Part shown: positions 2,546-32,824 of the stretch, one piece after another | How positions within the stretch are numbered: position 1 is the first letter of the stretch | Layout of the letters: each line of letters opens with the position of its first letter | Origin: an uncultured Candidatus Saccharibacteria bacterium | Lineage (GTDB): Bacteria > Patescibacteriota > Minisyncoccia > Phycocordibacterales > GWA1-40-21 | Reading direction: 5' to 3' | Length of the DNA: 41,118 nt | Assembly: GCA_964583845.1 (NCBI GenBank) | Contig: CAZOXG010000002.1 | Span: 1 to 41,118, forward strand | The notes under the pieces: model-generated | What the model was told of the DNA's origin: nothing | Database searches by the model: none | What the model saw: the letters and a program-made list of their open reading frames with translations, nothing else | Made by a program: the position numbers and the translations under genes

Positions 2546-2626
2546 GCGCGGGTGGTGAAATGGCAGACACGCTAGCCTTAGGAGCTAGTGCCGCAAGGCA
2601 TGGAGGTTCAAGTCCTCTCCCGCGCA
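2546..2626 (+). tRNA. tRNA-Leu (anticodon UAG), type II with long variable arm, no encoded CCA
   Basis: Cloverleaf folded by hand: acceptor GCGCGGG/CCCGCGC, anticodon stem CTAGC/GCTAG, loop CTTAGGA, variable stem GCC/GGC, T arm GGAGG-TTCAAGT-CCTCT. Confidence 0.93.
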
Positions 2627-2659
2627 CAAACAAACTGACTAAAAGTCAGTTTTTTGTTG
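2627..2659. terminator. bidirectional terminator hairpin between the tRNA and mini-element copy A
   Basis: CAAACAAACTGAC-TAAAA-GTCAGTTTTTTGTTG: a GC-poor stem flanked by A-run and T-run. Confidence 0.6.
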
Positions 2660-2832
2660 CGCGGGAAGCAACCTCTGGGAGAGGTTGCGTGAGGACTTGA
2701 AAGGCGGAGCAAATTTTTGATAGTAGTCAAAAATGCGAGCCGGGGTCGAGAAATTTTACGAGCGACGGCGAGTAAAATATTCGTGACCAAGTCCTCTCCT
2801 TAAAGTCGAGGGAAAGACTCCTCTCCCGCGCA
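2659..2832 (-). mobile_element. gene-3'-end-associated mini-element, copy A (type-1 core), behind tRNA-Leu(UAG)
   Basis: Minus-strand core is GTCACGAATATTTTAC-TCGCCGTCGCTC-GTAAAATTTCTCGACCCCGGCTCG-hairpin-CTCCGCCTTTCAAGTCCTC. Inverted tRNA 3'-end pieces at 2659-2665 and 2691-2701. Direct copies at 2788-2799 and 2818-2832. Confidence 0.8.
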
Positions 2833-2862
2833 TAAGTGAGGACAAGACTGTTAATAATTATT

Positions 2863-2892
2863 TTGCAAAAATACATTGGAAAATGGTATAAT
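2863..2892 (+). promoter_or_regulatory. promoter of the DUF3592-like gene
   Basis: TTGCAA (2863-2868), 18-nt spacer, TATAAT (2887-2892). Confidence 0.55.
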
Positions 2893-2945
2893 TTACTGAT
2901 AGCTGATTGCTTTTGCAACCCCAAATATACAAAAATCATAATATT

Positions 2946-3635
2946 ATGAAAAATAAAATTACTAGTTTGGTTGGCGCCATTTTCTTTTTTCTTGGTATCG
3001 GCATACTTATAGGGGGGATTTTCGAATACAAGAGCAACCAGCAATTCCTTCAATCGTCCCAAAAAAGTACTGGAATTGTTACAGATTTAATTCTTGGTGA
3101 TTCTGTTTACTACCCAGTGCTACAATTCCGTACACTTGCAAATAAGACAATTGATTTTAAATCATCAGTAGGTAGCAATCCTCCCTCGTATCGAGTAGGA
3201 GATACTGTGGAAATTTATTACAATCCGACGGATCCATATTCAGCAAAAATATCTGATTTCTGGTCGAATTGGTTTGGAGTTATAATCACTGGTTTTCTTG
3301 GCACTATATTCACGTTTTTGGGTGGAATATTTCTAGGCAGTATGATCAGATCTAGTATGAAGAAAAAATGGTTGTTACAATATGGAAAAAGGATTTCTTC
3401 CGAATTTCAAAAAGTAGAAATAAATGAAAGTTTCTCTGCTAACGGAATTCATCCTTACATTATCGTAAGTCAGTGGCAAGACCCAGAAACCAGAACAATT
3501 CATATCTTTAAAAGTGAAAATATTATGTATAATCCAGAAAAATATATTACTAATAAAAGTATAGATGTGTTAGTAGATCCCATGAATTGTAAAAAATATT
3601 ATACGGACATTAGTTTCTTGCCAAAGTCAGAGTGA
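2946..3635 (+). CDS. DUF3592-like membrane protein (by-eye call)
   Basis: ORF 2907..3635. The ATG at 2946 gives MKNKITSLVG plus a TM. GDTVEIYYNPTDP and a second TM fit the DUF3592 layout. Backbone-like low G+C. Confidence 0.55.
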   Translation: MKNKITSLVGAIFFFLGIGILIGGIFEYKSNQQFLQSSQKSTGIVTDLILGDSVYYPVLQFRTLANKTIDFKSSVGSNPPSYRVGDTVEIYYNPTDPYSAKISDFWSNWFGVIITGFLGTIFTFLGGIFLGSMIRSSMKKKWLLQYGKRISSEFQKVEINESFSANGIHPYIIVSQWQDPETRTIHIFKSENIMYNPEKYITNKSIDVLVDPMNCKKYYTDISFLPKSE

Positions 3636-3660
3636 AATTATTAATGTACTAAATATCTTC

Positions 3661-3727
3661 TTCCTCTGGTTCGCTGCAGCGACCTCAGTCGAAACTCAGT
3701 ATCGAATTATGGCGCAAAGTGGTGCAC
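3661..3727 (+). repeat. decayed older mini-element remnant (C0)
   Basis: 3702-3727 TCGAATTATGG-CGCAAAG-TGGTGCAC parallels the right arm of copy C1 (TTCGAATCCTAC-TCGCAAG..-TGGGTGCAC). Followed by an old hairpin at 3744-3769 and a tRNA-Lys 3' remnant at 3779-3788. Confidence 0.3.
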
Positions 3728-3778
3728 TATGTGGGCAACAACTTTTGTCTTTTGTGTGCTCAAGACAAAGATTCTATA

Positions 3779-3976
3779 AGTAGGAATTTCTTCCTCGACT
3801 AAAACTTCGTCGTCGGGCCACAAAGGCCACTTCCATTTTCTAACACGGAGTACCGTGAAGAAAATCAGGTCGCTCGGTTTTGTCTGGGCACGCTCTCGCA
3901 TGACTTTCTACTGAAAGTCATTGGCTCCGAGCTTCGAATCCTACTCGCAAGTGATAACATCACTTGCTTGGGTGCA
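3779..3976 (+). mobile_element. mini-element copy C1 (type-2 core variant), behind tRNA-Lys
   Basis: Left arm AGTAGGAATT. The core shares GGTCGCTCGGTTT..TGGGCACGC.TC-hairpin-CTCCGAGCT with copy G2. Right arm is TTCGAATCCTAC, then a 24-nt inserted hairpin, then TGGGTGCA, which is the tRNA-Lys 3' half in inverted orientation. Confidence 0.65.
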
Positions 3977-4014
3977 CAATTAAAAAAACTGCTACGCGCA
4001 GTTTTTTTTAATTG
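3977..4014. terminator. bidirectional terminator shared by copy C1 and tRNA-Lys
   Basis: CAATTAAAAAAACTGC-TACG-CGCAGTTTTTTTTAATTG palindrome. Confidence 0.65.
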
Positions 4015-4087
4015 TGCACCCAGTAGGATTCGAACCTACGACCTTGTCCTTAAGAGGGACCTGCTCTACCAACTGAGCTATGGATGC
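4015..4087 (-). tRNA. tRNA-Lys (anticodon CUU), no encoded CCA
   Basis: Minus-strand cloverleaf: acceptor GCATCCA/TGGGTGC, anticodon loop CTCTTAA, T arm with TTCGAAT loop. Confidence 0.9.
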
Positions 4088-4145
4088 ATTTTTACCTAAT
4101 AAAAGTAACAGTTATTTTAAGAAAAATCAAGTAATTTTGCTTTCA

Positions 4146-4174
4146 TTGACATTTATTGATTTGTAAGGTAATTT
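4146..4174 (+). promoter_or_regulatory. candidate promoter of the 4307 gene
   Basis: TTGACA (4146-4151), 17-nt spacer, TAATTT. The leader contains hairpin TAGCAGAC/GTCTGCTA (about 4206-4243). Confidence 0.45.
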
Positions 4175-4306
4175 AAAAACCAGTTCTTTATATATTATTT
4201 CGCTTTAGCAGACAGTATCTTTATTATATGATTTTGTCTGCTACAGCGAAAAACCCGATGTGGGCTAAGCTGAGCAGTATGTAAACTGCTAAGTAGGAGA
4301 AAGACA

Positions 4307-5014
4307 ATGAAACACTCATCGGCAATCCAAATGCTCAGGTTGTCTGAGCTGATCGCAAAGGGGTCAGAACATGCTTTAGAGAGGATTCTTCGGAATCCTG
4401 GAGTCTTTAAAGACCTTCTTGAGGCGGCTGAAATGAGAGAGGGAGATAATCGCTTTCATGGTCAGTCTCGCTGGGAAATTCGCAAGGCCCTTGGTCTTAG
4501 CAAATATCCAGCACCCGAAGTCTTTCAGATCTCTGTTGATGTTAACCCGTCGGTTAGTATTGAAGATTTGATTGGACTTGGAAAGTATCAGTATGTAAGT
4601 GCTGCTATGCAAGAGTCCATCAAGAACAATTTATTTGCCCGGGCCGAAAAGTCTGGAAAGGTTAAGATTTCTATCCTTCACTTTGATAGGGATATCATTT
4701 CCTACAATTCTGGTCACGAAATGTTGGAGGAGGTTGATCCAACTACGATTGAGAAAGAGATGCAAATAATCAATTGCATTCCTTTTAGTCCGAAGTATCG
4801 TCCGTTAAATATTGACGAACTTTTGGCGGTCGGGAGTCAGAAACCCGAGATCCAAAAGAAGTTCCCTTTGGTTGCCTATGGTTTGTTCTCTGGTCAGGCA
4901 AATGTTGCCTTGGACGACAGCGGACCACGACCTGAGCACCGCCGGTTGGTCGAATACAACTTCGACTGTAATGCCTTCTATGACTTCTACCGCATCCTTG
5001 CGGTGGAGACATAA
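4307..5014 (+). CDS. hypothetical protein (higher-GC ORFan)
   Basis: 235-aa ORF with GGAGAAAG 5-6 nt before the ATG. No motif recognised. Weak hairpin plus T-run at 5016-5067. Confidence 0.7.
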   Translation: MKHSSAIQMLRLSELIAKGSEHALERILRNPGVFKDLLEAAEMREGDNRFHGQSRWEIRKALGLSKYPAPEVFQISVDVNPSVSIEDLIGLGKYQYVSAAMQESIKNNLFARAEKSGKVKISILHFDRDIISYNSGHEMLEEVDPTTIEKEMQIINCIPFSPKYRPLNIDELLAVGSQKPEIQKKFPLVAYGLFSGQANVALDDSGPRPEHRRLVEYNFDCNAFYDFYRILAVET

Positions 5015-5121
5015 TCACACATGTTTCTACAACCCGTGCATCTGAATAAGGTGTGTGGGATTTTTTTATGTAAGAATATAATATTAAACATAATGGGGAT
5101 TTGGTGACAAATATTTTCCAA

Positions 5122-5379
5122 GTGCCCAGGATGGGACTCGGTCAGGAATAATTTTCTTATCGACACAAGAAAATTTTCACGACCATTACATGGTCAGTAC
5201 ACCATTTTGGATATTTTATTTCGTTACACTCATAAAATATCTCACAAGGTCTTTCGGTTGGGTCCCTTACCCAATCCTCAACCTGCCTCGCGGCTGGGCA
5301 TTGCTATACCCAGACCCTCTGCCTAAGAAAAATCGGCAAAGGGTACGCTCCGCTTTTCGAGTTCCACCCTATCGGGCAC
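5122..5379 (+). mobile_element. mini-element copy D1 (composite/nested), outer copy behind tRNA-Leu(UAA)
   Basis: Left arm GTGCCCAGGATGGGACTCG matches the tRNA gene strand at 17/19. Then GTCAGGAATAATTTTCTT-ATCGACAC-AAGAAAATTTTCACGACC. A nested second core-like unit lies at about 5192-5245. Right arm is TTCGAGTTCCACCC-TAT-CGGGCAC. Confidence 0.7.
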
Positions 5380-5395
5380 ATACAAAAAAACAGCT

Positions 5396-5480
5396 TGGTG
5401 GACTCGGTCACAGGTTTTTGCTTGCTAGCAAAACCCGCGACCCCGACTCGGCCCGTCGGCCTCCGTCTTTCGAGTCCCAC
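5396..5480 (+). mobile_element. mini-element copy D2 (short type-1 core), inner copy behind tRNA-Leu(UAA)
   Basis: TGGTGGACTCG|GTCACAGGTTTTTGCTTGCTAGCAAAACCCGCGACCCCGACTCGGCCCGTCGGCCTCCGTCTT|TCGAGTCCCAC. Confidence 0.75.
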
Positions 5481-5481
5481 G

Positions 5482-5520
5482 ACCAAAACAAAAACGGCCA
5501 TAAGCCGTTTTTGTTTTGGT
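5482..5520. terminator. bidirectional terminator, overlaps the CCA end of tRNA-Leu(UAA)
   Basis: ACCAAAACAAAAACGGC-CATAA-GCCGTTTTTGTTTTGGT perfect palindrome. Confidence 0.7.
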
Positions 5521-5602
5521 GCCCGGGGTGGGACTCGAACCCGCACGGTGTTACCACCGAAAGATTTTAAGTCTTTTGCGTCTACCATTCCGCCACCCGG
5601 GC
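5517..5602 (-). tRNA. tRNA-Leu (anticodon UAA), type II, CCA encoded
   Basis: Acceptor GCCCGGG/CCCGGGC, anticodon stem AAAGA/TCTTT, loop CTTAAAA, T loop TTCGAGT, 3' ACCA. Confidence 0.92.
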
Positions 5603-5618
5603 GAATATATTTTTGGCC

Positions 5619-5743
5619 TTGAGGCCTGTGCAGAATGGTCAGGAATATTTTGTTCGCCGGCGCTCACAAAATTTCACGACCCTGGCTCGGCCCGGCTGAT
5701 TGCTATCAGCCGACTTCGTGGCCTCTGCCTTTCGATTCTGCCC
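5619..5743 (+). mobile_element. mini-element copy B (type-1 core), behind tRNA-Cys
   Basis: Left arm TTGAGGCCTGTGCAGAATG versus tRNA gene strand TTGAGGCCTAGGGCAGAATCG. Core is GTCAGGAATATTTTGT-TCGCCGGCGCTC-ACAAAATTTCACGACCCTGGCTCGGCC-CGGCTGAT/ATCAGCCG-..GGCCTCTGCCTT. Right arm TTCGATTCTGCCC. Confidence 0.8.
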
Positions 5744-5767
5744 GAAAAAACACTTTCGTGTTTTTTC
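5744..5767. terminator. bidirectional terminator between copy B and tRNA-Cys
   Basis: GAAAAAACAC-TTTC-GTGTTTTTTC. Confidence 0.65.
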
Positions 5768-5770
5768 TTG

Positions 5771-5842
5771 AGGCCTAGGGCAGAATCGAACTGCCGTATA
5801 GAGATTTTGCAGATCTCTGCCTTACCACTTGGCTACTAGGCC
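5771..5842 (-). tRNA. tRNA-Cys (anticodon GCA), discriminator U, no CCA
   Basis: Acceptor GGCCTAG/CTAGGCC, anticodon loop CTGCAAA, T arm GGCAG-TTCGATT-CTGCC. Confidence 0.92.
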
Positions 5843-5974: not shown

Positions 5975-6316
5975 CTAATTTTTATTTATCAAATCGTCAA
6001 TTTTTTGTCGGTTTTTTTCACCGCTGTCTATTTCAAAATCAAACAGTGGTGGACGTCCGATGCGAATATTGTCTATAAAATACTTATAGAATTCACTGCG
6101 ATGACGCTTGGCAAAATTCAAGGCTCCGATTTCTTTGTCTGTTGGTAAAACGGAAAAAAGAATTTTTGCATGTTTGCCGTCTTTTGATAATTTAACATCA
6201 GTTACAGTGATAAGTGAAGTTTGATTGGATTCGCGCTGTAAATATTCAGCCGCTTTCTCGCGAATAGCTTGAATTAGTTTAATATCTCTTTTGCTTTCAT
6301 TTTCTTGTATTATCAT
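5975..6316 (-). CDS. rbfA: ribosome-binding factor A
   Basis: 113 aa. ITVTDVKLSKDGKHAKILFSV matches the RbfA KH-like core. Sits directly downstream of infB, the conserved order. Confidence 0.85.
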   Translation of the reverse strand: MIIQENESKRDIKLIQAIREKAAEYLQRESNQTSLITVTDVKLSKDGKHAKILFSVLPTDKEIGALNFAKRHRSEFYKYFIDNIRIGRPPLFDFEIDSGEKNRQKIDDLINKN

Positions 6317-6317
6317 T

Positions 6318-7823
6318 TTATTTTTCTATTAGTCTGACGGAAATAATTTTGTCACCCGGTGCTACTTCTATATTGGCTTGTAACATACAACCGAATTCCA
6401 CACCGCCACGAACTTCATTGGTCTTAACTTTTTGTTGCTGAAGCTCCTTTATTTTGCCAGCACCAATTTTTACATCCTGACGCATTATTTTTACATCATC
6501 TCCAACATTTAGTAAACCTTCCTCAGCTCGTCCGCCTAAAACATATTTGTCTTTAACACTACTGAAAACTTTAAGTATTTTTGCTCGGCCAGCTTCTTCT
6601 TCAACTTGTATCTTTGGGGTAATGGCCAAAGCTTTTTCTGCCAACCACTCAGTCAGTTTGTAAATAATATCAAAAGTTTTAATTTCTACACCGTCTCGTT
6701 CCGCCAAGTGTTTGGCTTGGGTATCTATTTTTGTATCAAATCCCACCAAGAGTGTGCCAACCTTGCTAGCCGTCAGTTTTACATCGCCTTCAGTGATATC
6801 ACCAATGGTAGCTGAAATAATGTGTATTTTAACTCGGTCGTTTTTAATTTTGGCCATCTCATGAGCGATACCTTCAAGAGCTCCAACATTTTGAGCTTTG
6901 ATCACTACTTGAAGCAGTGCTTGATTCTCTAGTAATTCATCGGTTACCATACAGTTGTTGCTCACTCGTGTCTCTTTGAATGAAGTGGTAAATTCCTCAG
7001 CTTCTTTTTTTGTACTAACGGTTGTAAACGGTGTTCCAACTTTAGGTTGTATGTTAAAACCAATAACACGAACTGGAGAAGAAAAAGTGACATCAGTAAT
7101 TTTTTTACCTTTAAAATCTTCCATCATTCTGGTGGTGGCCCAGGCGTCACCGCAAACAACAAAGTCACCGCTGTGAATTGAACCGTCTTTAATTATAAGT
7201 GTCGCGGAGATACCTTTTTTACTATCCAAGGTGGCTTCGATGACCGCACCTTCAGCTACCCGTTCAGGATGGCCTTTAAGTTCCTCCATCTCAGCTACTA
7301 AAAGTAATAGGTTGAGTAGATCATCTACACCTTTACCAGTTTTGGCAGAAATTGGGACATAAGAAATATCACCACCCATACCTTCAAGGTAAATACCATT
7401 TTCTACTAAACTCATTTTTGTTCTCTCAATATCGGCACCAGGTTTGTCTATTTTGTTGATAGCTACAATGTAGGGAAGTTTACTAGCGACAATACAGTGC
7501 AAAGCTTCTAGTGTTTGTTTTTTAACACCGTCATCAGCTGAGACTACTAAAATGGCAATGTCGGCAACTTCAACTCCACGTGAGCGAATAGCTCCAAACG
7601 CCTCGTGCCCAGGGGTATCCAAGAAAGTAATTTTCTTTTCTTCACCGGCCAAATTTTGACGAACTACTTCATACGCCGAAATCTTCTGGGTAATACCACC
7701 AGCTTCAGAATCAACGATATTGGTCTTGCGAATATAGTCTAGTAGAGTGGATTTACCATGGTCAATGTGACCCATAATACAAACTACCGGCGGTCGCTCT
7801 TGTGTTATTTCTTCTTTAGTCAT
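6318..7823 (-). CDS. infB: translation initiation factor IF-2 (short form starting at the G domain)
   Basis: 501 aa. G motifs [17 protein letters not shown] and NKID, followed by the beta-barrel and C-terminal domains. Confidence 0.92.
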
Positions 7824-19338: not shown

Positions 19339-19462
19339 ATCAGATTCGGTCACGACTTTTTCTTTCGCCGTCGCTCAAGAAAAGTCTCGACCCTAGCTCA
19401 GCATTACTCGCTGGAGCTCGTAATAAGCTTGCGCTTTTCGAATCTGAGTGGGCCCGCATATT
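19339..19462 (+). mobile_element. mini-element copy F (type-1 core), behind tRNA-Trp
   Basis: CATCAGATTCG|GTCACGACTTTTTCTT-TCGCCGTCGCTC-AAGAAAAGTCTCGACCCTAGCTCAG-hairpin-CTTGCGCTTT|TCGAATCTGAGTGGGCCCGCATATT. The 26-nt right arm is a perfect inverted copy of the tRNA 3' half. Confidence 0.85.
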
Positions 19463-19489
19463 AAAAAAACTGCTTATTAGTAGTTTTTT
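19463..19489. terminator. AT-only hairpin at the centre of the 26-nt inverted repeat
   Basis: AAAAAACT/AGTTTTTT stem. The flanking arms extend the palindrome to 19437-19515. Confidence 0.6.
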
Positions 19490-19495
19490 AATATG

Positions 19496-19567
19496 CGGGC
19501 CCACTCAGATTCGAACTGAGAACCTCGCGTTTGGAGTGCGATGTTTTACCATTGAAACTATGGACCC
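19496..19567 (-). tRNA. tRNA-Trp (anticodon CCA), no encoded CCA end
   Basis: Acceptor GGGTCCA/TGGGCCC, anticodon stem TCGCA/CGCGA (imperfect), loop CTCCAAA, T arm CTCAG-TTCGAAT-CTGAG. Confidence 0.9.
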
Positions 19568-21598: not shown

Positions 21599-21728
21599 TG
21601 CCGAGAGCGAGACCCGGTTACGAATATTTTTCTTGTTGTCACAAGAAAAATTTCTCGACCCCGGCTCGGCCACTCTCTCTGGTGATAGTGGCTTTGCGGC
21701 CTCCGCCTTTCGAGTCTCTCTCCCGGCA
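21599..21728 (+). mobile_element. mini-element copy G1 (type-1 core), outer copy behind tRNA-Leu(CAA)
   Basis: TGCCGAGAGCGAGACCCG|GTTACGAATATTTTTCTTGT-TGTC-ACAAGAAAAATTTCTCGACCCCGGCTCGGCC-CCACT..AGTGG-CTTTGCGGCCTCCGCCTT|TCGAGTCTCTCTCCCGGCA. Confidence 0.85.
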
Positions 21729-21736
21729 AATACAAG

Positions 21737-21858
21737 TGCCGGATAGAGGACTCGCCCGCACCTCTCGTTTCGCCGTCGCTCAACTCGGTTTGGGCACCGC
21801 CTCACATTTTTGACTACTGTCAAAAATAGGTTCCGGCGTTCGAGTCTCTCTCCCGGCA
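21737..21858 (+). mobile_element. mini-element copy G2 (type-2 core), inner copy behind tRNA-Leu(CAA)
   Basis: TGCCGGATAGAGGACTCG|CCCGCACCTCTCGTTTCGCCGTCGCTCAACTCGGTTTGGGCACCGCCTCA-CATTTTTGACTACTGTCAAAAAT-AGGTTCCGGCGT|TCGAGTCTCTCTCCCGGCA. Confidence 0.8.
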
Positions 21859-21898
21859 CAAAAGAAAAACACTGGAATATTCCAGTGTTTTTCTTTTG
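21859..21898. terminator. bidirectional terminator between copy G2 and tRNA-Leu(CAA)
   Basis: CAAAAGAAAAACACTGG-AATATT-CCAGTGTTTTTCTTTTG perfect palindrome. Confidence 0.75.
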
Positions 21899-30411: not shown

Positions 30412-30495
30412 TTATTTTGTGTCTGCAACCTCAGCCAGTTTATGTGGATTATGATTAGGACAATTCTTATCACTACATCTATCTGGTATGGTCTT
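30412..30495 (-). pseudogene. displaced 3'-terminal fragment of topA (27 codons plus stop)
   Basis: Minus-strand translation is KTIPDRCSDKNCPNHNPHKLAEVADTK*. The first 20 aa are identical to the end of intact TopA, with 12/60 nt different and all differences synonymous. Confidence 0.8.
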
Positions 30496-30497
30496 TG

Positions 30498-30628
30498 GTC
30501 ACAAATATTTTCTCGCCGTCGCTCAAAAATTTTGCCGACCCCGGCTCAGTATTGCTCGTTGCTACTCGCAATATACTTCCGCCTCACAAAAACTAAAAAC
30601 AGACAGCGAAGACTGTCTGTTTCTTACA
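30498..30628 (+). mobile_element. mini-element copy H (type-1 core plus terminator), behind topA
   Basis: GTCACAAATATTTTC-TCGCCGTCGCTC-AAAAATTTTGCCGACCCCGGCTCAG-TATTGC..GCAATA-TACTTCCGCCTCAC, then the AAACAGACAG-6 nt-CTGTCTGTTT hairpin (30597-30622) directly before the topA stop. Confidence 0.85.
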
Positions 30629-32824
30629 TTAGTTTGTTAATTTATGCGGATTATGATTCGGACAATTCTTATCAGAACAGCGATCGGGAATAGTTTTTGT
30701 GCCAACCATCATCAACTCACCACATAACTTACATTTTTCTCCAGTTGGTTTAGTTTTGATTATATATTTGCAATCAGGATAATTTGAACAACTATAGAAA
30801 ATTCCAAATCGTCCACGCTTTTCAGTCATCATACCTTTTTTACACTTTGGACATTCAACACCAGTGGAGTTCAATCTCTCCATTTCTTTATCTTTTTTTA
30901 TAAACTTACATTTCGGATAATTACCACAAGCGATAAACTTACCAAATTTTCCTTCACGTTCAAACAAGTTTGATTTACCACATTGCGGGCAAAGTTCACC
31001 AGTATCTTTTGGTCCCGCAATTTCAATTCCGTCCATTTTAAGTGCTCCTTGACACTCTGGATATTTGGCGCAACTCAAAAACTTGCCAGTGCGTCCAAGC
31101 TTGATCACCATCGGTCCTTTACAAACTGGGCATTTAAATTCGGCACCTGCTTCACCAAGATTAGTAATTTTTTCTACTCCTTCTTTAGCCTTAACATCTG
31201 CTAAGAACGGGCCATAAAAATCCTTCAAAGTTTTGACGTATTGAGCTGTTCCGTTGGCAATATTGTCCAGTTTGTCTTCCATGTCGGCGGTAAAAGTATC
31301 ACTGATATATTTGCCAAAATTATCTTCCAAGAAAGTACTGACAGTCTCACCGGTGTCAGTTGGTTTGAGAGCTCTTTCTATTTTTTCAACATAACCACGA
31401 TCCTGAATCGTCTTAATAATAGAAGCATAAGTAGAAGGACGGCCAATACCTCTTTTTTCTAATTCTTTAATCAAACCCGCTTCAGTATAACGTGGTGGTG
31501 GTTCGGTACTTTTTTCCTGATCTTTAATTTCAATTAGTTTAAGAGTCTCACCAACAGTGATACTTGGTAGTTCTACATCTTCACCACGAGCCTGAGGGTC
31601 GGCGATTAACCAACCGTCAAAGATAACGCGGGACCCATTGGCGGTAAAATCTGGAATCTCACCAGTACCAATTTTTACAATTATTTTACTACGAGCGATT
31701 TTGGCATCAGTCATCTGAGAAGCCACAGTTCTTTGCCAAATCAATTTATAAAGTTTGGCTTGTTCAGGTGTAAAACGAGAACTAGTTTCTAAAGCAAAGT
31801 TAGTTGGACGGATGGCTTCGTGAGCTTCTTGGGCATTTTTACTTTTGGCAGCGAAAGTGCGAGGAGATAAATAATTTTCTCCATAGTTAGTTTTTATAGT
31901 TGCAAAGATTTTTTCTTGAGCTTCTTTGGAAAGGTTGGTACTGTCCGTACGCATATAACTGATGAAACCACCTTCGTAAAGTTTTTGAGCAATACTCATG
32001 GTTCGAGCCGGAGCAAAACCAAGACGGGAAGAAGCAGTTTGTTGCAAGGTGGAAGTGATGAATGGGGCTTTTGGTTGACGTTTAGCTTCGGTTTCATTTA
32101 GATCAGAAATCACCCAGGAATTTGTTTTGCCATAAGCAACAATACGTTTCATTTCTTCTTCGGTTTTTGGTTTTTCTTCACACTCTAAAGGCAAAGGTAA
32201 CTTTTTTGTGGTTTCAGTATCGGCAGTTATCACCCAATATTTTTCAGGAACAAATGCGCGAACTTCACGTTCGCGCTCTACAATAATACGTAGGGCTGGT
32301 GACTGAACACGTCCAGCGGATAGTCCGTAGCGAACTTTTTTCCAAATCAAACCAGAGAGATCGTAACCAACGAGACGATCTAAAACACGGCGAGCTTCTT
32401 GAGCTTGGCGTAAGTTCTCGTCAATTAAGCGTGGGTGAGTCAAAGCTTCTTCGATCGCGGATTTCGTGATTTCATGAAAAGCCACACGTTTTGGATTATG
32501 AAGACCAATAGCCTCCTTCAAATGCCAAGCAATTGCTTCACCTTCACGGTCGGGGTCAGTCGCAAGTAAAACTTCTTCTGCTTCACTAGAGAGTTTTTTT
32601 AATTCCGCGACCACTTTTTCTTTGCCCGGAGAAATTTCGTAAGTGGGAACGAAGCCTGCGGGAATATCAATCGCCTTTTTGTTACTTTTTGGTAAGTCAC
32701 GAATATGACCGATACTTGCCTTTACTATATAACCTTCACCGGCATATTTGGTTATTGTGTTGGCTTTGGCAGGGGACTCCACGATCAATAATTTAAAACT
32801 TTTTGGTGAACTTGTATTACTCAT
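30629..32824 (-). CDS. topA: DNA topoisomerase I with four C-terminal zinc ribbons
   Basis: Toprim start LLIVESPAKA, type IA core, and four CxxC..CxxC modules. The ATG at 32824 is preferred over the TTG at 32833. Confidence 0.93.
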   Translation of the reverse strand: MSNTSSPKSFKLLIVESPAKANTITKYAGEGYIVKASIGHIRDLPKSNKKAIDIPAGFVPTYEISPGKEKVVAELKKLSSEAEEVLLATDPDREGEAIAWHLKEAIGLHNPKRVAFHEITKSAIEEALTHPRLIDENLRQAQEARRVLDRLVGYDLSGLIWKKVRYGLSAGRVQSPALRIIVEREREVRAFVPEKYWVITADTETTKKLPLPLECEEKPKTEEEMKRIVAYGKTNSWVISDLNETEAKRQPKAPFITSTLQQTASSRLGFAPARTMSIAQKLYEGGFISYMRTDSTNLSKEAQEKIFATIKTNYGENYLSPRTFAAKSKNAQEAHEAIRPTNFALETSSRFTPEQAKLYKLIWQRTVASQMTDAKIARSKIIVKIGTGEIPDFTANGSRVIFDGWLIADPQARGEDVELPSITVGETLKLIEIKDQEKSTEPPPRYTEAGLIKELEKRGIGRPSTYASIIKTIQDRGYVEKIERALKPTDTGETVSTFLEDNFGKYISDTFTADMEDKLDNIANGTAQYVKTLKDFYGPFLADVKAKEGVEKITNLGEAGAEFKCPVCKGPMVIKLGRTGKFLSCAKYPECQGALKMDGIEIAGPKDTGELCPQCGKSNLFEREGKFGKFIACGNYPKCKFIKKDKEMERLNSTGVECPKCKKGMMTEKRGRFGIFYSCSNYPDCKYIIKTKPTGEKCKLCGELMMVGTKTIPDRCSDKNCPNHNPHKLTN

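Follow-up and report, generated by a model that had tools for sequence, protein, structure and literature searches.

What lies stacked behind the tRNA-Leu(UAA) gene of an uncultured Candidatus Saccharibacteria bacterium, and how did the stack arise? The question was raised by a first-pass annotation of contig CAZOXG010000002.1 (assembly GCA_964583845.1), of which the whole 41,118-nucleotide stretch that was analysed is referred to here as the window. At least two full copies of a small element, D2 (5396-5480) and D1 (5122-5379), were described in series behind this tRNA, with another core-like unit nested inside D1, and were attributed to repeated re-use of one tRNA 3' end, each arrival pushing the earlier ones outward. 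With a little better than even confidence, we read the array as a pile-up of miniature, non-autonomous insertion cassettes that occur throughout the Patescibacteria and home in on the 3' ends of tRNA genes and, in occasional cases, of a protein gene. Insertion polymorphism, target duplication with retention of the native trailer, a covarying structure on the sense strand, a fixed orientation, strain-level turnover and mosaicism are established. The accretion model is partly supported: it is right in outline and too simple on monotonic decay and nesting.

The units follow one order in the direction of the tRNA: after the tRNA and a terminator hairpin come X', which is the tRNA 3' end in inverted copy, a conserved, covarying three-way junction formed by the tRNA-sense strand, and the DR, a direct copy of that same 3' end. 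The scale is larger than had been implied, as each of the window's seven tRNAs, the plus-strand tRNA-Leu(UAG) among them, has a co-oriented unit behind it and an eighth unit lies behind topA. The core pattern occurs seven times in the window compared with 0.33 occurrences expected, and none of 100 shuffles reached seven. A strict scan for this pattern in one genome per species returned 92 stretches, nearly all of them from metagenome-assembled genomes (MAGs) of Patescibacteria, the candidate phyla radiation (CPR), among them Saccharibacteria, Paceibacteria, Kaiser-, Nomura-, Berkel-, Taylor- and Campbellbacteria and Minisyncoccia. Sixty-one of the 98 pattern matches are found 20-90 nt behind the 3' end of a tRNA, in every case in the orientation of that tRNA, and at least 15 tRNA identities are represented. 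Matches to a covariance model (CM), R1, which was built from 38 short-form units (37 from other genomes and D2 itself) and whose quick calibration makes its E-values rough, are limited to Patescibacteria-type loci. The pattern matches in Actinobacteria and other high-GC genomes outside the CPR were rejected as chance, as the CM finds none there. When the whole window was compared with Rfam 15 at gathering score, only the seven tRNAs passed, and at E<=10 the region 5050-5780 gave only chance-level matches (sucC, 18.6 bits where the gathering score is 50; miRNAs; 5S, 16.6 bits). A full-text literature search on tRNA-linked repeats and motifs in the CPR found no description of such units, and the family is apparently undescribed.

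That these units are insertions follows from related loci, 80 of which were retrieved with IF-2 as the anchor (loci from other genomes are numbered L001 onwards). The cluster of infB, rbfA and the genes for tRNA-Cys, tRNA-Leu(taa), tRNA-Lys and tRNA-Leu(tag) was intact as a cluster in the relatives that were inspected. Six of them (L095, L097, L100, L106, L117 and L131) have no unit in this operon that R1 detects, the operon spacers of L117 being only 11-56 nt long, and in others units are found behind any subset of the four tRNAs. Copy number at the locus is, therefore, not invariant across relatives, and the sister strain L093 has a different array at the same spot. The total of 44 'empty' tRNAs among 134 is inflated, as R1 misses degenerate units and those with a third type of core (type 3, below). 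Behind tRNA-Leu(tag) in the close relatives L111, L114 and L116, the empty site consists of the tRNA and its native terminator, and the occupied site consists of the tRNA, a new terminator, a hairpin, X', the core, an 18-nt copy of the tRNA end and the native terminator. A comparison of L114 (occupied) with L116 (empty) gives an insert of about 215 nt and a duplication of 18 nt. Because the DR is followed by the native terminator, the original tRNA end is the one in the distal repeat, and the replacement end and its terminator were brought by the insert. In L111, an inner unit of the 3'-end type stands in front of an outer remnant of the T-loop type. The duplications measure about 9 nt in the 3'-end type (L009/L037), 18-21 nt in the T-loop type and about 47 nt at topA. 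The topA unit (30480-30595, minus strand) has a second copy of the topA 3' end beyond it (window 30440-30700). Both copies encode the same 17 residues, PDRCSDKNCPNHNPHKL, with synonymous codons that include CGC/AGA, TCT/AGT and TTA/CTG, and these differences suggest that one copy, as a block of topA 3' end, terminator and unit, was imported from a diverged lineage.

In the window, the operon that is compact in L095, L100, L106 and L117 is widened to about 3.3 kb (2546-5842) by units and two open reading frames (ORFs), 4307-5014 with no Pfam match and 2907-3635 with a DUF3592 match, and tRNA-Leu(tag) is inverted relative to the compact operons. The compact operon is ancestral, and the units mark recombination hot spots that enlarge it.

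The core was characterised in a gapless alignment of the 38 short-form units, which is partly shaped by the search pattern. On the tRNA-sense strand it forms a three-way junction of three helices: H1, in which X' is paired with the DR, H2 and H3. H2 is composed of GNC/GN'C, a tandem G.A/A.G and GGCC/GGCC, and its N:N' pair (22:42) is CG in 19 units, GC in 11 and AU in seven; part of the H2 region was set by the search pattern, which makes the invariance of H2 an effect of ascertainment and leaves the N:N' covariation unaffected. H3 lies outside the pattern. It is a 15-bp hairpin that is 97% paired and has compensatory changes in 11 of its 15 pairs across the 38 units, with a G.U wobble in 38 of 38, an invariant bulged A and an AGCA loop. 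The covariation score was 0.396 compared with 0.158 in shuffles (0 of 500), and slid controls did not exceed 0.134. The wobbles of H3 comprise 51 G.U and no A.C, which sets the structured strand; those of the H1 arms comprise 27 G.U and 23 A.C, with no bias, and the arms look like copies made at the DNA level. In every case that was folded, the sense strand gave the more stable structure (-45.1 versus -34.7 kcal/mol for the antisense strand in D2, and -48.9 versus -43.9 and -54.0 versus -42.0 kcal/mol). The wobble bias of H3, the fold energies and the covariation together indicate that the core structure is selected on the sense strand only. A box C/D or kink-turn interpretation of the G.A motif was considered and set aside, as its bulge has one nucleotide instead of three and the C and D boxes are absent.

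The tRNA-Leu(UAA) gene is the target and the anchor of the array, whose features are arranged as follows, from the tRNA outward and ending with the neighbouring unit on its other side:

5517-5602, minus strand: tRNA-Leu(UAA) gene with encoded CCA (5517-5519); ARAGORN, and Rfam tRNA at 56.5 bits.
5483-5519, minus strand: trailer/terminator hairpin, CCAAAACAAAAACGGC-TTATG-GCCGTTTTTGTTTTGG; sequence.
5470-5480, minus strand: X'2, GTGGGACTCGA, inverted copy of the tRNA T-loop and the 3' strand of the T-stem, 5' strand of D2 H1; sequence.
5407-5469, minus strand: D2 core, short form; R1 at 95.1 bits.
5396-5406, minus strand: DR2, short direct copy of the 3' part of the tRNA T-arm (C-GAGTCCACCA), 3' strand of D2 H1; sequence.
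5380-5395, minus strand: 16-nt spacer between D2 and D1, AGCTGTTTTTTTGTAT; about 93% identical between the window and L093.
5357-5379, minus strand: X'1, full-length inverted copy of the tRNA 3' end (GTGCCCG-ATA-GGGTGGAACTCGA), 5' strand of D1 H1; sequence.
5346-5356, minus strand: start of the H2 of the outer unit (AAAGCGGAGCG), the remainder of H2 being gone; common to L093 unit B up to AAAGCGGAG, then divergent.
5282-5324, minus strand: decayed H2-like module AGGCAGAGGGTCTGGGTATAGCAATGCCCAGCCGCGAGGCAGG, a CTGGG..CCCAG hairpin plus CTCTGCCT; weak local similarity.
5185-5281, minus strand: 'type-3' core inside D1; blastn of 5185-5245.
5140-5184, minus strand: H3(a), intact terminal hairpin of the outer unit, GGTCGTGAAAATTTTCTT-GTGTCGAT-AAGAAAATTATTCCTGACC; hidden Markov model (HMM) and R1.
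5122-5139, minus strand: DR1, direct copy of the tRNA 3' end (GAGTCCCATCCTGGGCAC); sequence.
5095-5121, minus strand: remnant of one more unit, comprising an H3 3' strand (TTGGAAAATATTTGTCACC) and AAATCCCC; alignment to the unit at 30480-30595.
5627-5741, minus strand: long-form unit behind tRNA-Cys, between tRNA-Cys and tRNA-Leu(UAA); CM at 39.6 bits, HMM at E=5e-23.

The trailer hairpin begins within the CCA of the tRNA and, flanked by an A-run and, on its opposite side, by a T-run, has the shape of a bidirectional terminator. As it is wholly different in L093 despite flanks that are 93% identical, it is part of the variable inserted block. The unit behind tRNA-Cys has an orthologue in L093 and is missing from several relatives.

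D2 is a complete unit. It reads TGGTGGACTCG / GTCACAGG...CTCCGTCTT / TCGAGTCCCAC, as had been described, and the coordinates of the first-pass annotation proved accurate to within one base. It gives the best R1 match in the window (95.1 bits, E=7e-33) and is also found at 44.3 bits (E=1.7e-13) by an HMM that was built from units of other genomes only. X'2 is paired with 5396-5405 both in the minimum-free-energy fold and in the model alignment. In D2, H2 (AAG-A-CGGAGGCC-GACG-GGCCGAG-T-CGGGG) has the covarying N/N' pair, the tandem G.A/A.G and GGCC/GGCC, and H3 (GTCGCGGG..CCTGTGAC) is the 15-bp hairpin with the G.U wobble and the bulged A. Six other units in the window are clear, with R1 scores of 30-60 bits and significant HMM matches for all. 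Long forms were searched with an HMM of 41 units, all from other genomes and delimited by the coordinates of CM matches, which were used because a strict regular expression for long forms caught only seven units; nhmmer with the short-form core was too insensitive for them.

D1 is not a second full copy. Its arms stood up well. The left arm, GTGCCCAGGATGGGACTCG (5122-5140, DR1 plus C5140), matches the tRNA strand at 17 of 19 positions as claimed, although this strand lies at 5520-5538 and not at 5519-5537; both differences are C>T and yield G.U pairs with X'1. The right arm, TTCGAGTTCCACCC-TAT-CGGGCAC (5356-5379), is its inverted copy and departs from the tRNA by one mismatch and an insertion of 3 nt. 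When the models were aligned to D1, its 5125-5184 end, with H3(a) and DR1, gave an R1 match (16.9 bits, E=6e-4) and an HMM match to model positions 69-129 (E=7e-9), and its 5348-5369 end, which includes part of X'1, gave a weak HMM match to positions 6-27 (E=0.41) and no separate R1 match. H3(a) also aligns locally with the outer unit at tRNA-Leu(CAA) at z=20; the shuffles behind this and the other local-alignment z-scores kept mononucleotide composition only. Between the two ends lie 163 nt where model positions 28-68, about 40, would be expected. The ends are in the right order and register, which makes D1 a single interrupted outer unit.

Neither R1 nor the HMM matched the proposed nested unit (5192-5324). 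Homology was found by another route: the first 60 nt of the 163-nt stretch (5185-5245) are 78-89% identical over 50-62 nt to L135, L136, L152 and L167. The context was inspected in L135, and the other three were matched by sequence only. In L135 the blastn matches are 86% identical over 50 nt (E=4e-9) and 78% over 59 nt, in units behind tRNA-Cys and tRNA-Leu(taa) (6075-6235 and 6324-6495). Behind the tRNA, their layout is a terminator, an X' into which a hairpin is inserted, a long A/T hairpin whose loop has 12 nt, GGTCGTGTAACGACC and the DR; they have no H2 and keep the tRNA-derived arms. In D1, the corresponding core combines an X'-like piece, which bears a small hairpin (TTGGGTAAGGGACCCAA), with a long A/T hairpin (GATATTTTAT-GAGTGTAACGAA-ATAAAATATC) that is followed by TGTACT-GACCATGTAAT. 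Because of this homology, the nested element is a real member of the family with a third core type, and as R1 misses this core the family is wider than the census shows; however, 'nested' is here inseparable from 'mosaic'. The CTGGG..CCCAG hairpin and CTCTGCCT module that had been placed after it is present, but its likeness to an H2 is weak (score 23 against the H2 of the tRNA-Cys unit, z=3.8, reached by two of 300 shuffles), its N/N' pair is G.G and neither family model detects it. The supposed 5' core fragment just outside D1 (GGTGACAAATATTTT, 5103-5117) turned out to be the 3' strand of the terminal hairpin of another unit. The remnant that holds it aligns with the topA unit at about 15 of 16 positions by eye (z=10.5) and has a sub-threshold HMM match in the correct register (model positions 98-124, E=1.5), and its AAATCCCC is the DR of a TTCAAATCC-type tRNA, not of tRNA-Leu(UAA).

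How far the array is a record of successive arrivals was indicated by L093, a strain with 93% nucleotide identity that aligns with the window from 12823 down to 5453 and, at about 80%, from 5071 on; 5072-5452 are unalignable. Its tRNA-Leu has no encoded CCA and a different trailer hairpin, and its array starts at the tRNA with a lineage-specific unit A, a long form whose 18-nt X' is perfect; D2, pushed outward, is truncated to its 3' end and is followed by the shared spacer and then by a unit B. DR2 has an orthologue there, kept as the remnant ...CCTGTGACCGAGTTCTAAAGCTG. Since the spacer is conserved along with the 3' end of D2 and X'1, it is older than the strain split. The ends of unit B (X'1 plus AAAGCGGAG; TGACCGAGTCCCAT, the start of DR1) are orthologous to those of D1, whereas its interior is an ordinary intact core that is unrelated to the interior of D1. 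D2 and the boundaries of the outer unit thus predate the split, the newer unit of L093 is nearest to the tRNA, and interiors were exchanged. Moreover, the 5' halves of units A and B are 97% identical while their 3' halves (H3) are unrelated, the core type switches between L122/L123 and L125 after an identical X' plus AAGACGGA, and the array of L065 alternates as long/short/long/short. These observations, together with the comparison of D1 and unit B, show that local duplication, gene conversion and core swapping also shape the arrays. Insertions that re-use the tRNA end therefore stand, but a simple chronological stack does not. The claim that outer copies are more decayed held for the cores at tRNA-Leu(UAA), which fall from 95 to 17 bits and then to a fragment, but not for the arms, as those of D1 are longer than those of D2 and nearly as intact. 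Nor did it hold at tRNA-Leu(CAA) (window 21725-21865), where the inner unit has a perfect 20-nt X', an intact H2 and a collapsed H3 and the outer one is well preserved; with the more degenerate core on the inside, decay is not monotonic with position. At tRNA-Lys (3660-3960), for which the same stacking had been claimed, there are only degenerate traces: an X' that is interrupted by a hairpin, an H2-like piece and no H3.

Several variants of the unit were observed in other genomes. Type-2 units have the same H3 and long, perfect closing arms that are unrelated to any tRNA, and they stand alone between genes (L069 6744-6836; L011 834-930 and 4613-4707; L044 6771-6878; L118, L122 and L123 just upstream of infB). 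Some of them are at conserved positions adjoining infB, and the one in L069 lies inside the loop of a 26-bp hairpin. Many short-form units have a conserved hairpin, AATGATTCGCAAGGnCnGC...GCnGnCCGnGCGAAGCATCATTG, between the tRNA and X' and no U-tract terminator (L028, L032, L039, L040, L044, L071, L081-L084 and L092). With GAGA at the end of X', these units have a tandem G.A/A.G where H1 has its base, and they look like a distinct subfamily with a second conserved module. In L001 (Saccharibacteria MAG CAZXQA010000001.1, 1253-4615), two units behind tRNA-Tyr bracket about 3 kb with genes of a defence type, for a ThsB-like TIR protein and a SLATT/DUF4231 protein, and a direct repeat of about 160 bp (the 3' half of the unit, the DR and 90 bp) is found at both ends, so units may flank cargo. 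Additionally, the window contains perfect palindromes of up to about 37 bp at 19440-19514 and 3964-4025, in each of which a tRNA 3' end plus trailer is joined to the complementary sequence; in a read-through transcript they would compete with the folding of the tRNA.

In the interpretation that we favour, each cassette carries, in the direction of the tRNA, a replacement for the 3' segment of the target (T-loop to tRNA end), its own trailer/terminator hairpin, X' and the core. The displaced original tRNA 3' end stays behind as the DR and pairs with X', which closes the junction. New cassettes enter at the live tRNA end, so that older ones shift outward and are free to decay, and recombination between units through conserved core sequences produces mosaic or interrupted units such as D1. 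The core may be the recognition module for a candidate trans-acting enzyme, and the complementarity of X' and DR to the target could either direct integration or result from it. It is possible, although we propose it only tentatively, that the units constitute a new class of mobile element specific to Patescibacteria, in which a three-way junction of about 65 nt, as RNA or folded single-stranded DNA (ssDNA), is combined with programmable sense and antisense target arms that guide it by pairing or homology to nearly any tRNA 3' end and to some protein genes, supplying a replacement 3' end and terminator.

Several points weigh against the cassette interpretation. The gain of a unit at an orthologous tRNA could be explained by plain homologous recombination with DNA of a relative in which the unit is already present, so that presence and absence prove a history of insertion and not active transposition. 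Some units (L114 and those of the L028 type) combine a perfect DR with an X' arm that contains a hairpin insertion or G.A motifs, which argues against fresh templating of the arms at each insertion. The core is 82-87% identical to D2 across classes, which a host function could equally explain, and the terminator usually lies between the tRNA and the unit, so that sense transcription needs read-through. No mobilising enzyme, excised form or autonomous copy was found in the window or in loci near units, and the core pattern had no match in IMG/VR and hence no phage link. Pfam identified only housekeeping genes in the window, with no integrase, transposase or reverse transcriptase (RT), and clustering of the ORFs within 2.5 kb of units at about 80 loci yielded no recurrent protein family. 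DprA is encoded in the window, and we considered a spread of the units by homologous recombination or transformation in which the tRNA and the DR serve as built-in homology arms.

A serious rival, because the structural conservation is so strong, is that the units are structured non-coding RNAs that benefit the host at the ends of tRNA transcripts, whether as acceptor mimics or decoys, as processing or stability modules or as an X' switch between the tRNA 3' end and the DR, and that arrays grew by duplication. The covariation, the invariant G.U, the bulged A and the tandem G.A, all on the tRNA-sense strand, are what such an RNA would have, as are an orientation fixed with the tRNA and a core conserved across CPR classes. 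Canonical terminators often follow the DR (L056, L062, L032 and L051), the DR often reproduces the tRNA end at 19 of 19 positions, and the X / X' / X layout permits two alternative pairings. Nevertheless, the units are dispensable, given the operons that are empty by R1, the spacers of L117 that are too short to hold one and the occurrence of every other combination of occupancy. Many copies are also decayed, truncated or mosaic, and the terminator precedes the unit at most loci. Mimicry of a tRNA would be pointless for the unit at topA with its duplicated topA 3' end, and the arms of the stand-alone type-2 units are unrelated to tRNA. We consider this explanation unlikely. The units vary in how far they resemble a tRNA-like structure: in long forms X' starts opposite tRNA position 72 and the DR ends at the discriminator, in others X' pairs with the CCA itself (L026) or the acceptor part is missing (D2), and ARAGORN calls no unit a tRNA.

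The units could instead be folded ssDNA attachment sites akin to integron attC or to CTX-type integrative mobile elements exploiting Xer (IMEX), where X'/DR pairing rebuilds a duplex target, a host or unlinked tyrosine recombinase exchanges one strand and replication resolves the product, the cassettes being mostly empty and some carrying cargo. Integration of CTXphi attP(+) leaves a target copy, then an inverted copy, a spacer and a target copy, and the same layout is seen here with a spacer of about 65-130 nt. Further likenesses are a strand-specific fold made from two arms, arrays that grow at one entry site, cargo-free copies and a strictly fixed orientation. H1 arms with no strand bias are expected for a DNA-level origin, the units of L001 bracket defence genes, and recombination breakpoints lie within or at the edge of the core. 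However, no recombinase gene is linked to the units, neither Xer nor IntI, and the arms copy the local tRNA end instead of dif or the R''/R' core sites. They differ with each target (any tRNA, trailers, topA), and such targeting cannot be the work of a sequence-specific recombinase. The spacer is a junction conserved in sequence, whose tetraloops, tandem G.A and invariant G.U would be more usual in an RNA, and the stem is without the other half of the T-arm palindrome. GC skew, which is weak evidence, suggests that the structured strand is not the lagging-strand template in the window. We regard this explanation as distinctly unlikely. As named systems, integron attC was rejected because there is no integrase in the window and the conserved junctions, by eye, are AAGNCGGAG and GTGACC and not RYYYAAC/GTTRRRY core sites, and CTX-type IMEX because only the X...X'-spacer-X layout is common to both.

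Retroelements are very unlikely candidates. In this case, a sense transcript of X', core and DR with a tRNA-like acceptor/T minihelix would use X' as a primer-binding site, or acquire its arms by template switching, and its cDNA would integrate by homology, as reportedly happens at a tRNA gene with the Mauriceville retroplasmid of Neurospora. Like the primer-binding sites of long terminal repeat (LTR) elements, X' is an 11-23-nt complement of the 3'-terminal segment of a tRNA (about 18 nt in those elements), and the element ends in a DR that repeats the tRNA 3' end as far as the discriminator or CCA. Integration beside the cognate tRNA gene with duplication of tRNA sequence is also said to occur in the retroplasmid. 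The structure is on the sense strand only, some DRs have a CCA where the adjacent tRNA gene has none (L006 and L003), and the long, perfect palindromes of tRNA end and trailer resemble snap-back products. Yet no evident RT is linked to the units, which occur in bacterial chromosomes and not in a eukaryote or mitochondrion, and a CCA in the DR is equally explained if the DR is the former gene end. The DR and X' boundaries at T54/C56 fit no known RT stop, and X' arms with hairpin insertions are not simple copies.

The remaining alternative, in which there were no new arrivals and a single ancient unit was expanded and scrambled by local tandem duplication and deletion, would suit the 97% identity between the 5' halves of L093 units A and B, the block duplication implied by L065 and the direct repeats around each unit that favour unequal crossing-over, but it is very improbable, as D2 (short), the outer D1 (long), the type-3 core and the outermost remnant with the DR of a different tRNA belong to different subfamilies that each have their closest relatives in other genomes or at other loci, and the trailer hairpin and CCA status at the tRNA differ between the window and L093.

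Among the known systems that the units resemble are the integrative elements and islands that target tRNA genes through the att sites of tyrosine integrases. These also insert in the 3' part of the tRNA with a crossover region from the T-loop, supply a replacement 3' end, leave the displaced end as a direct repeat and stack successively at one tRNA, and the same logic applies at the 3' end of a protein gene (topA). As in those elements, a tRNA 3' repeat flanks the insert and sequence of the element reconstitutes the tRNA (L114 versus L116, and the trailer and CCA of the window versus L093). The units differ in their size of about 100-260 bp, in having no integrase and no gene or ORF, in one core that serves dozens of targets, and in the internal inverted target copy X' and the covarying junction; no integrase was found inside units, in the window or recurrently at the loci around units. 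With MITEs (miniature inverted-repeat transposable elements) and with hairpin-forming doublets of repetitive extragenic palindromes (REPINs), the units share small size, multiple copies, intergenic location, hairpins, non-autonomy, intact beside decayed copies and insertion polymorphism between strains, but they have no constant terminal inverted repeats, their duplication varies from 9 to 47 bp, and their orientation and position relative to the tRNA are strict. A MITE was rejected because the arms differ between loci and copy the tRNA 3' end (those of type 2 being different again) and the duplication length is not fixed. No parent insertion sequence, transposase or REP-associated tyrosine transposase (RAYT) was found in the window, and no such family recurs within 2.5 kb of units at about 80 loci. 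Other candidates were also rejected: a class C group II intron, as the core is a three-way junction of 63-130 nt, where such an intron is a six-domain ribozyme with domain V and at least several hundred nt, and there is no Rfam intron match; a self-cleaving ribozyme, as the GA-stem-GA resembles the flanks of hammerhead stem II but the CUGA and GAAA boxes and any Rfam match are absent; and TIGR-Tas arrays, which occur in the CPR and have dual-strand guides, as tigRNAs are 36 nt long and have another architecture and no link to tRNA.

tRNA 3' ends are classic landing sites of integrative elements, and the same logic appears here in a form of about 100 nt across a superphylum with tiny genomes, with one conserved structured core joined to arms that derive from the target. 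Should the arms direct integration, the units would form an insertion system that is programmable by nature; should the core instead be a functional RNA, the CPR would have in it a major RNA family that is so far uncharacterised. Units that bracket defence genes in at least one genome bear on how ultra-small symbionts acquire and shuffle accessory DNA. The family is, moreover, a source of strain-level variation and of assembly and binning breaks in CPR MAGs.

Two minor observations concern the surroundings and the arms of individual units. Units are also found behind partial 5' fragments of tRNAs (tRNA-Glu or tRNA-Ser up to the anticodon or the D arm; L034 337-436, L019 4546-4609 and L017 210-309), and because these fragments lie upstream of an intact copy of the same tRNA, the tRNA genes were partly duplicated around the units. 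In the DR arms of L001, L034, L043, L069, L067 and L116, which represent different tRNAs and different lineages, a conserved module of 12-13 nt, AG(C/T)GTAC(C/T)C(A)CG, is inserted just past the T-loop-derived CGAA or CAAA.

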